Source of the DNA: Escherichia coli
Lineage (GTDB): Bacteria > Pseudomonadota > Gammaproteobacteria > Enterobacterales > Enterobacteriaceae
DNA: 64,000 nucleotides
Strand: one strand, 5' to 3'
NCBI RefSeq assembly: GCF_016026235.1
Contig: NZ_CP065613.1
This document shows, in pieces, positions 59,347 to 59,588 of this stretch. The notes beneath the pieces were generated by a model that was not told where the DNA came from, searched no databases, and worked only from the letters and a program-made list of their open reading frames with translations. The translations under genes were made by a program, and so were the position numbers. The stretch's first letter is position 1, and every line of letters starts with the position of its first letter.

Positions 59347-59504
59347 TGTTTTATTCCTGCATTTTTGCCACGAATTGCAACTGTCGGGCATGGTCGTCAT
59401 CAACACGACGCATCCCGCTACCGCGAAAACCTTTGATCCTGAAAGACACGCAGTGCAGTTGGTTAATTAATGTCCGCGCTTCCCACGGCGCACCATTACG
59501 CTAT

Positions 59505-59545
59505 TGCAAATGCAAATAGTTATCAATAATATTATCAATATATTT
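59505..59545. promoter_or_regulatory. Fur box(es) in the fepA/fes divergent promoter
   Basis: aaatagttatcaataatattatcaat matches the GATAATGATAATCATTATC iron-box consensus in overlapping hexamers. Confidence 0.7.
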
Positions 59546-59588
59546 CTGCAATCAATGAAAAATTGCACAGTAAACATGGGGTTATGGT

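Follow-up and report, generated by a model that had tools for sequence, protein, structure and literature searches.

The fepA-fes intergenic region of an Escherichia coli chromosome: Fur hexamer array, divergent promoters and fepA mRNA leader

The locus and its equivalence to K-12

The window analysed here is a 64-kb stretch of Escherichia coli chromosome. Its list of open reading frames places a gap of exactly 242 bp (59347-59588) between fepA, which is read leftward, and fes, which is read rightward. The coding sequences around this gap are as follows.

57106..59346, minus strand: fepA coding sequence (ferric enterobactin outer-membrane receptor), ATG at 59346-59344; from the ORF list, NCBIfam and RefSeq
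59589..60791, plus strand: fes (enterochelin esterase), GTG start at 59589; from NCBIfam and RefSeq
60794-61012, plus strand: ybdZ, following fes; Pfam MbtH-like protein
61009 onward, plus strand: entF, following ybdZ and running past the end of the window

The fepA product scored 1281 bits against the NCBIfam FepA family (cutoff 493) and the fes product 709 bits against the enterochelin esterase family (cutoff 222). EntD was confirmed by HMM downstream of fepA, and downstream of fes Pfam recognized an MbtH-like protein (YbdZ) and then condensation and AMP-binding domains (EntF; NRPS). In RefSeq, an E. coli genome of 99.8% identity is annotated with the same gene boundaries. A 442-bp query spanning the gap matched 5414 of the 5426 complete E. 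coli genomes at no less than 90% identity, and in all matches listed for this query the annotation was fepA on one side and fes on the other. The open reading frames, the HMMs and the RefSeq annotation of near-identical genomes therefore all put the region between a divergent fepA(-entD) and fes(-ybdZ-entF). The original prediction had described a 242-bp region between divergent fepA and fes-ybdZ-entF, and its coordinates proved exact, with the gene identities now confirmed by HMM.

Some details of the gene starts were noted in passing. From the GTG at 59589, fes encodes 400 aa, while an older annotation, implied by a distance of -149 in PMC2189734, starts at the ATG at 59667 and gives 374 aa. 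Residues 1-26 of Fes are kept as protein across genera, which supports the upstream GTG start. A mini-ORF of two codons (ATG GTG TGA, 59584-59592) overlaps this GTG, and in several Citrobacter sequences one additional base brings its ATG in frame with fes. For fepA, a start 20 codons further upstream, at the in-frame GTG of 59406, was rejected because related genera carry 1-nt indels in 59347-59406.

The region was aligned with K-12 MG1655 over 59300-59640, and 340 of the 341 positions were identical, without indels, so that K-12 coordinates can be transferred one to one. The sole difference is at 59492, where the window has A for G, 5 bp beyond the segment that corresponds to the published Fur footprint. 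This DNase I footprint, from Hunt et al. 1994, has been tabulated as 611868-611915 in the old NC_000913 numbering (PMC2189734), and it transfers to 59497-59544 of the window. The same source modelled four overlapping Fur sites, mostly 6 bp apart, which cover 77% of the footprint; the strongest (18.7 bits) is centred at 611889, at -172 from the fepA start, and corresponds to 59518 (PMC2189734). Over the 48 bp of the footprint equivalent the K-12 identity is complete, and 4951 of the 5426 complete E. coli genomes are 100% identical to it. In K-12, Fur represses a fepA-lacZ fusion, and a study that combined ChIP-seq with expression data counted fepA-entD among the Fur-regulated operons.

The substituted position 59492 corresponds to nucleotide -146 of fepA; both the predominant mapped mRNA 5' end and stem-loop I of the fepA leader begin with it, and in stem-loop I the A turns a C-G pair into U-G. 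This A is rare: identity to the window over 59462-59522 was found in only 2 of 5389 complete E. coli genomes, and 17 of 17 other aligned taxa have G at this position.

The known E. coli K-12 fepA-fes system (Pettis 1988; Hunt 1994; Escolar 1998) is thus the same locus, with the same flanking genes, the same footprint-equivalent DNA and the same TATTAT -10 element. The window differs from it by the G-to-A change at 59492 (-146 of fepA) and by the insertion sequence context near entD, which is of the IS4 family here and IS186/IS421 in K-12. The IS4-family transposase ORF lies at 54425-56131 on the minus strand, between hokE/ybdK and entD (NF033591, 359 bits), and the transposase domain begins at residue 211 of a mechanically extended ORF of 568 aa. 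The same spot carries IS421/IS186 in K-12-like strains and ISEc60 in FDAARGOS_943, and the segment 50000-57200 of the window is covered to at least 80% in only 70 of the 5426 genomes. From this variety and this low coverage, the spot between hokE/ybdK and entD looks like a recurrent site of IS insertion.

The operator, its hexamers and the overlapping promoters

Three overlapping features describe the operator. None of them is assigned to a strand.

59497..59544: Fur operator, corresponding in the window to the DNase I footprint of K-12 (PMC2189734 and alignment)
59519..59542: core array of four phased Fur hexamers, GTTATC, AATAAT, ATTATC and AATATA (hexamer scoring and shuffles)
59498..59535: near-invariant block ACGCTATTGCAAATGCAAATAGTTATCAATAATATTAT, with 33 of 38 positions invariant in an alignment of 18 sequences

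The string aaatagttatcaataatattatcaat, in which the original prediction had seen overlapping GATAAT-type hexamers, lies at 59514-59539, enclosed by the footprint equivalent. It contains one exact ATTATC (59531-36) and, in strict 6-bp phase with it, two hexamers with one mismatch each, GTTATC (59519-24) and AATAAT (59525-30). A literal GATAAT is absent from it. Contiguous hexamers were scored against GATAAT or ATTATC in either orientation. The three hexamers GTTATC, AATAAT and ATTATC (59519-59536) match at 16 of 18 positions, and with AATATA the match is 20 of 24. Both the three-hexamer and the four-hexamer array rank first among the approximately 64,000 positions of the window. None of 2000 dinucleotide-preserving shuffles of the 242-bp gap reached the score, for three or for four hexamers, and when only the AT-rich core was shuffled the fraction reaching it was 0 for three hexamers and 0.001 for four. 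As a positive control we used a related locus of 46.7 kb with the whole ent cluster. The fepA/fes array ranks first in this locus as well, and the known Fur-controlled gaps fepB/entC and fepD/entS are found at ranks 7-19 from the top. The gap thus holds at least three contiguous NAT(A/T)AT-type hexamers in 6-bp phase, counted in either orientation, and the GATAAT-type description holds for three phased hexamers in an array beyond chance, although not for the literal hexamer. Two partial 7-1-7 motifs are also present, 12 bp apart, at 59511 (11/14) and 59523 (10/14). The left half of the footprint, with CAAATG and CAAATA, is a poor match to the hexamer (2/6 each).

The classic palindromic Fur box GATAATGATAATCATTATC gave a different result. 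At up to three mismatches, no classic 19-bp box was found in the whole 64-kb window. The best match in the gap is 13/19 at 59506, a level that approximately 37 strand-specific window positions reach and that is not distinguishable from background; the secondary matches step by 6 bp (59506, 59512, 59518, 59524). The classic-box search was therefore given up as a detector in favour of phased-hexamer scoring, and we describe the operator as a hexamer array.

High scores elsewhere in the window were also recorded. The window's best classic-box match is GATAATCATAATTAATTTC (15/19, 3428-3446, minus strand); it sits within a 258-aa ORF (2777-3553, plus strand) and not in a promoter, and for this position inside an ORF we regard it as probably a chance match. 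Several of the next-best hexamer-array scores fall at approximately 30000-32200 (for example 30001, 30266-30278, 31531 and 32126-32144), near an sfm/fim-type fimbrial operon by rough collinearity with locus L040. We suspect that these reflect ordinary AT-richness and not Fur sites.

The operator coincides with a set of back-to-back promoter elements. The exact -35/-10 assignments and start positions given here are inferred, and the corresponding features are listed below.

59526..59531, minus strand: -10 element TATTAT of the fepA distal promoter (consensus scan; PMC10301672)
59555-59550 or 59551-59546, minus strand: -35 element of the fepA distal promoter, either TTGATT with an 18-bp spacer or TTGCAG with a 14-bp spacer
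59498..59526, minus strand: putative fepA proximal promoter, -35 TTGATA (59526-59521), 17-bp spacer, -10 TAGCGT (59503-59498), start at approximately 59492
59504..59532, plus strand: putative fes promoter, -35 TTGCAA (59504-59509), 17-bp spacer, -10 TAATAT (59527-59532), start at approximately 59540
59540..59588, plus strand: putative fes 5'UTR of approximately 50 nt, from the promoter assignment, with a Shine-Dalgarno-like GGGG at 59578-59581

A consensus scan found a single promoter, on the minus strand, composed of TTGATT (59555-50), an 18-bp spacer and TATTAT (59531-26). The published fepA promoter is TTGCAG-14-TATTAT, with the same -10 as in our scan, and its start could be detected in vitro and in delta-fur cells, but not in the wild type (PMC10301672). 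From these elements we infer a distal fepA start at approximately 59520. The predominant fepA 5' end maps to -146 (PMC11979758), which is 59492 of the window, and the second, proximal promoter was placed to account for this end; both its -35 and its -10 hexamer fall within the invariant block. It is probable that fepA has two tandem promoters, although the end at -146 could be a processing product instead of a start. The work of Hunt in 1994 reportedly described two fepA promoters in tandem and a single fes promoter, in agreement with the proximal promoter proposed here.

The putative fes promoter matches the consensus at 8 of 12 positions by inspection, under the threshold of the scan. In K-12 the fepA and fes starts are separated by 19 bp, with an almost complete overlap of the promoters (PMC4469952, citing Pettis 1988); the starts placed at approximately 59520 and 59540 are 19-20 bp apart, with a fes promoter of only 8/12. 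The element CATGGGGTTA in the fes 5'UTR is conserved in the 18-sequence alignment. A terminator scan found none. All promoter elements except the distal fepA -35 are inside the footprint equivalent and the invariant block. The array at 59519-59542 contains both -10 hexamers (59526-32), so that operator and promoters overlap, and the footprint equivalent also spans the fes -35 and both proposed starts.

Conservation was examined by scanning a genome collection for Fes, which recovered 37 loci (Salmonella and Klebsiella were not recovered, the peptide patterns being too strict). A divergent fepA directly upstream of fes was found in Escherichia (including E. albertii and E. whittamii), Citrobacter, Kluyvera, Leclercia, Enterobacter and an isolate labelled 'Erwinia sp.', and 18 gap sequences with 6 genus labels were aligned. 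The 38-bp block ACGCTATTGCAAATGCAAATAGTTATCAATAATATTAT varies only at 59512-14 and 59518-19. Outside it, the remaining gap, the codons of the fepA signal peptide and the first fes codons are variable, and the leader has large indels. A conserved block of this kind within a divergent gap is what a regulatory site would look like; in the alignment it coincides with the biochemical footprint, and this is the strongest evidence from the present analysis for a functional element. Fes homologues of 45-63% identity without a fepA homologue within 1.5 kb upstream were observed at loci L024-L037 (Pseudomonas oryzihabitans group, Iodobacter, Aeromonas and Mangrovibacter). The divergent fepA-fes arrangement appears to be confined to a subset of Enterobacterales.

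The fepA mRNA leader

The part of the gap next to fepA is transcribed. All features of this leader are on the minus strand, and its stems come from a minimum free energy (MFE) fold mapped onto the window.

59347..59492: fepA 5'UTR, 146 nt from the predominant mapped 5' end (PMC11979758; MFE fold)
59358-59355: fepA Shine-Dalgarno AGGA
59492-59475: stem-loop I
59461-59456 paired with 59383-59378: stem II-a
approximately 59454-59420: stem-loop II-b
approximately 59417-59385: stem-loop II-c

Structure probing of the K-12 leader gave a 5-bp stem-loop I followed by a three-way junction, in which the 6-bp stem II-a closes II-b and II-c (PMC11979758). This topology also results when the window sequence is folded to its MFE structure. 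The stability of the leader is no greater than that of shuffles (z = 0.14) and so lends no independent support to the structure. According to the same study, the leader binds Hfq, and at least seven small RNAs repress fepA through different regions of the mRNA, three of them depending on stem-loop II-b (PMC11979758). An Rfam scan of 59000-60000 with E up to 1 found nothing.

In a comparison of 12 taxa, stem-loop I does not vary and II-b is maintained, with 2 compensatory pairs; the II-c region is not conserved. In Kluyvera (L012, L015) and in Enterobacter sp. kpr-6 (L022) the fepA leaders are only approximately 90-100 nt long and most of the II-b/II-c region is missing; the Fur operator block is still invariant in these short-leader sequences. 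From the short leaders of Kluyvera and Enterobacter sp. kpr-6, the part of the leader that acts as a small-RNA hub seems lineage-specific. Small plus-strand ORFs of 43-57 aa are present in the leader; they run antisense to the leader transcript, where the sequence diverges and carries indels.

Approximately 60% of the 242-bp region is thus a structured regulatory fepA leader and not promoter. The whole of 59347-59588 had been taken for a promoter region, which is correct for the promoter/operator at approximately 59497-59555, whereas 59347-59492 is transcribed fepA leader (PMC11979758). Long 5'UTRs that serve as small-RNA hubs are known from csgD, flhDC and rpoS, and the fepA leader, structured, 146 nt long and Hfq-binding, is alike. 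Its control is post-transcriptional; it is unrelated to the Fur operator and outside what the original prediction had claimed.

Weighing the explanations and the proposed mechanism

Taken with the K-12 literature, we consider it almost certain that 59347-59588 is the bidirectional Fur-controlled promoter/operator between fepA and fes of the E. coli enterobactin cluster. The gene identities, the near-identity to K-12, the excess of the hexamer array and the invariance of the operator across genera were established in this work, while the Fur footprint, the Fur-dependent transcription, the spacing of the starts and the leader structure come from the K-12 literature. Fur repression of both transcripts, as originally proposed, is supported by the footprint and the delta-fur start reported for near-identical K-12 DNA.

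The hexamers could in principle be a chance by-product of an AT-rich promoter that does not bind Fur, with the iron control of fepA and fes being indirect. A classic box of only 13/19, equalled at approximately 37 strand-specific positions of the window, would fit this, as would the fairly high hexamer scores of the AT-rich segment at approximately 30000-32200. However, the three-hexamer array beats every shuffle of its own AT-rich core and ranks first in the window, a Fur footprint was reported on the same sequence (PMC2189734), the fepA start was detected without Fur and not in the wild type (PMC10301672), and the block is invariant across genera. A chance origin is therefore extremely unlikely. 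It is scarcely more credible that Fur directly represses one direction only and that the other transcript responds indirectly, through promoter competition or supercoiling coupling. Both -10 elements are on the same base pairs, so that polymerase binding one way must affect the other, and the relative activity of the promoters does respond to a gyrase inhibitor (PMC4469952); against this, the operator spans the -10 element and the start of both promoters, and we hold repression of a single direction to be very improbable.

Somewhat less remote, although still unlikely, is that besides Fur an additional factor needed by both promoters binds the left half of the operator (59498-59517, ACGCTATTGCAAATGCAAAT, in which TGCAAA is repeated in tandem). 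The conservation of this half equals that of the Fur hexamers, and yet its own hexamers match at only 2/6 each. In the work of Hunt in 1994, mutations outside the promoter determinants reportedly lowered the expression of both operons and other regulatory components were suggested, which would favour such a factor. On the other hand, the invariance is largely explained by the proposed fepA proximal -10 (59498-503) and fes -35 (59504-09), and variation does occur between the promoter elements, at 59512-14 and 59518-19. The whole of 59498-59517 is within the Fur footprint (PMC2189734), and this analysis found no candidate factor or motif. If an additional factor did bind here, the switch would be more than a simple Fur on/off operator.

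Under direct Fur control of both directions, the favoured explanation, the mechanism may be described as follows. The AT-rich operator of approximately 48 bp (59497-59544) holds phased NAT(A/T)AT-type hexamers on which, when iron is sufficient, Fe2+-Fur dimers would bind side by side. The array overlies the shared -10 region of back-to-back sigma-70 promoters (fes at 59527-32 on the plus strand, fepA at 59531-26 on the minus strand), and Fur would also cover the fes -35, the putative fepA promoter further downstream and the two transcription starts. With the operator lying over the shared -10 region and the starts, one Fur complex would keep RNA polymerase off all transcripts, and the operator probably governs three promoters. 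When iron is scarce, Fur would leave the DNA, and fepA-entD would be transcribed leftward and fes-ybdZ-entF rightward. The leader at 59347-59492 adds post-transcriptional control by small RNAs and Hfq.

The fepB-entC and fepD-entS gaps are likewise short, lie between divergent operons under iron control and contain Fur sites, with raised hexamer-array scores. They have separated or secondary footprints (PMC2189734) and resemble the classic box more closely, as with GATAATCATTAT in fepB-entC, whereas fepA-fes has a single operator and fully overlapping promoters. The classic box of the aerobactin iucA promoter (GATAATGATAATCATTATC) is made of the same GATAAT/ATTATC units and is bound by multiple Fur dimers, but in fepA-fes its best register matches at only 13/19 and the hexamers are oriented reverse-forward-reverse and lack the 1-bp spacer in the centre. 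The fepA-fes site fits hexamer-array or overlapping-dimer models better than the classic box.

This control region is already known in detail and the analysis adds no new biology; the window proves to be unremarkable E. coli chromosome, and the original reading of the gap as an iron-regulated bidirectional control region was correct. A search with the classic 19-bp box would overlook this genuine, footprinted site. In the cross-genus comparison the operator is more conserved than the adjoining coding sequence, and the locus is a textbook example of how one metal-sensing repressor, acting at a single operator, silences two divergent siderophore operons.
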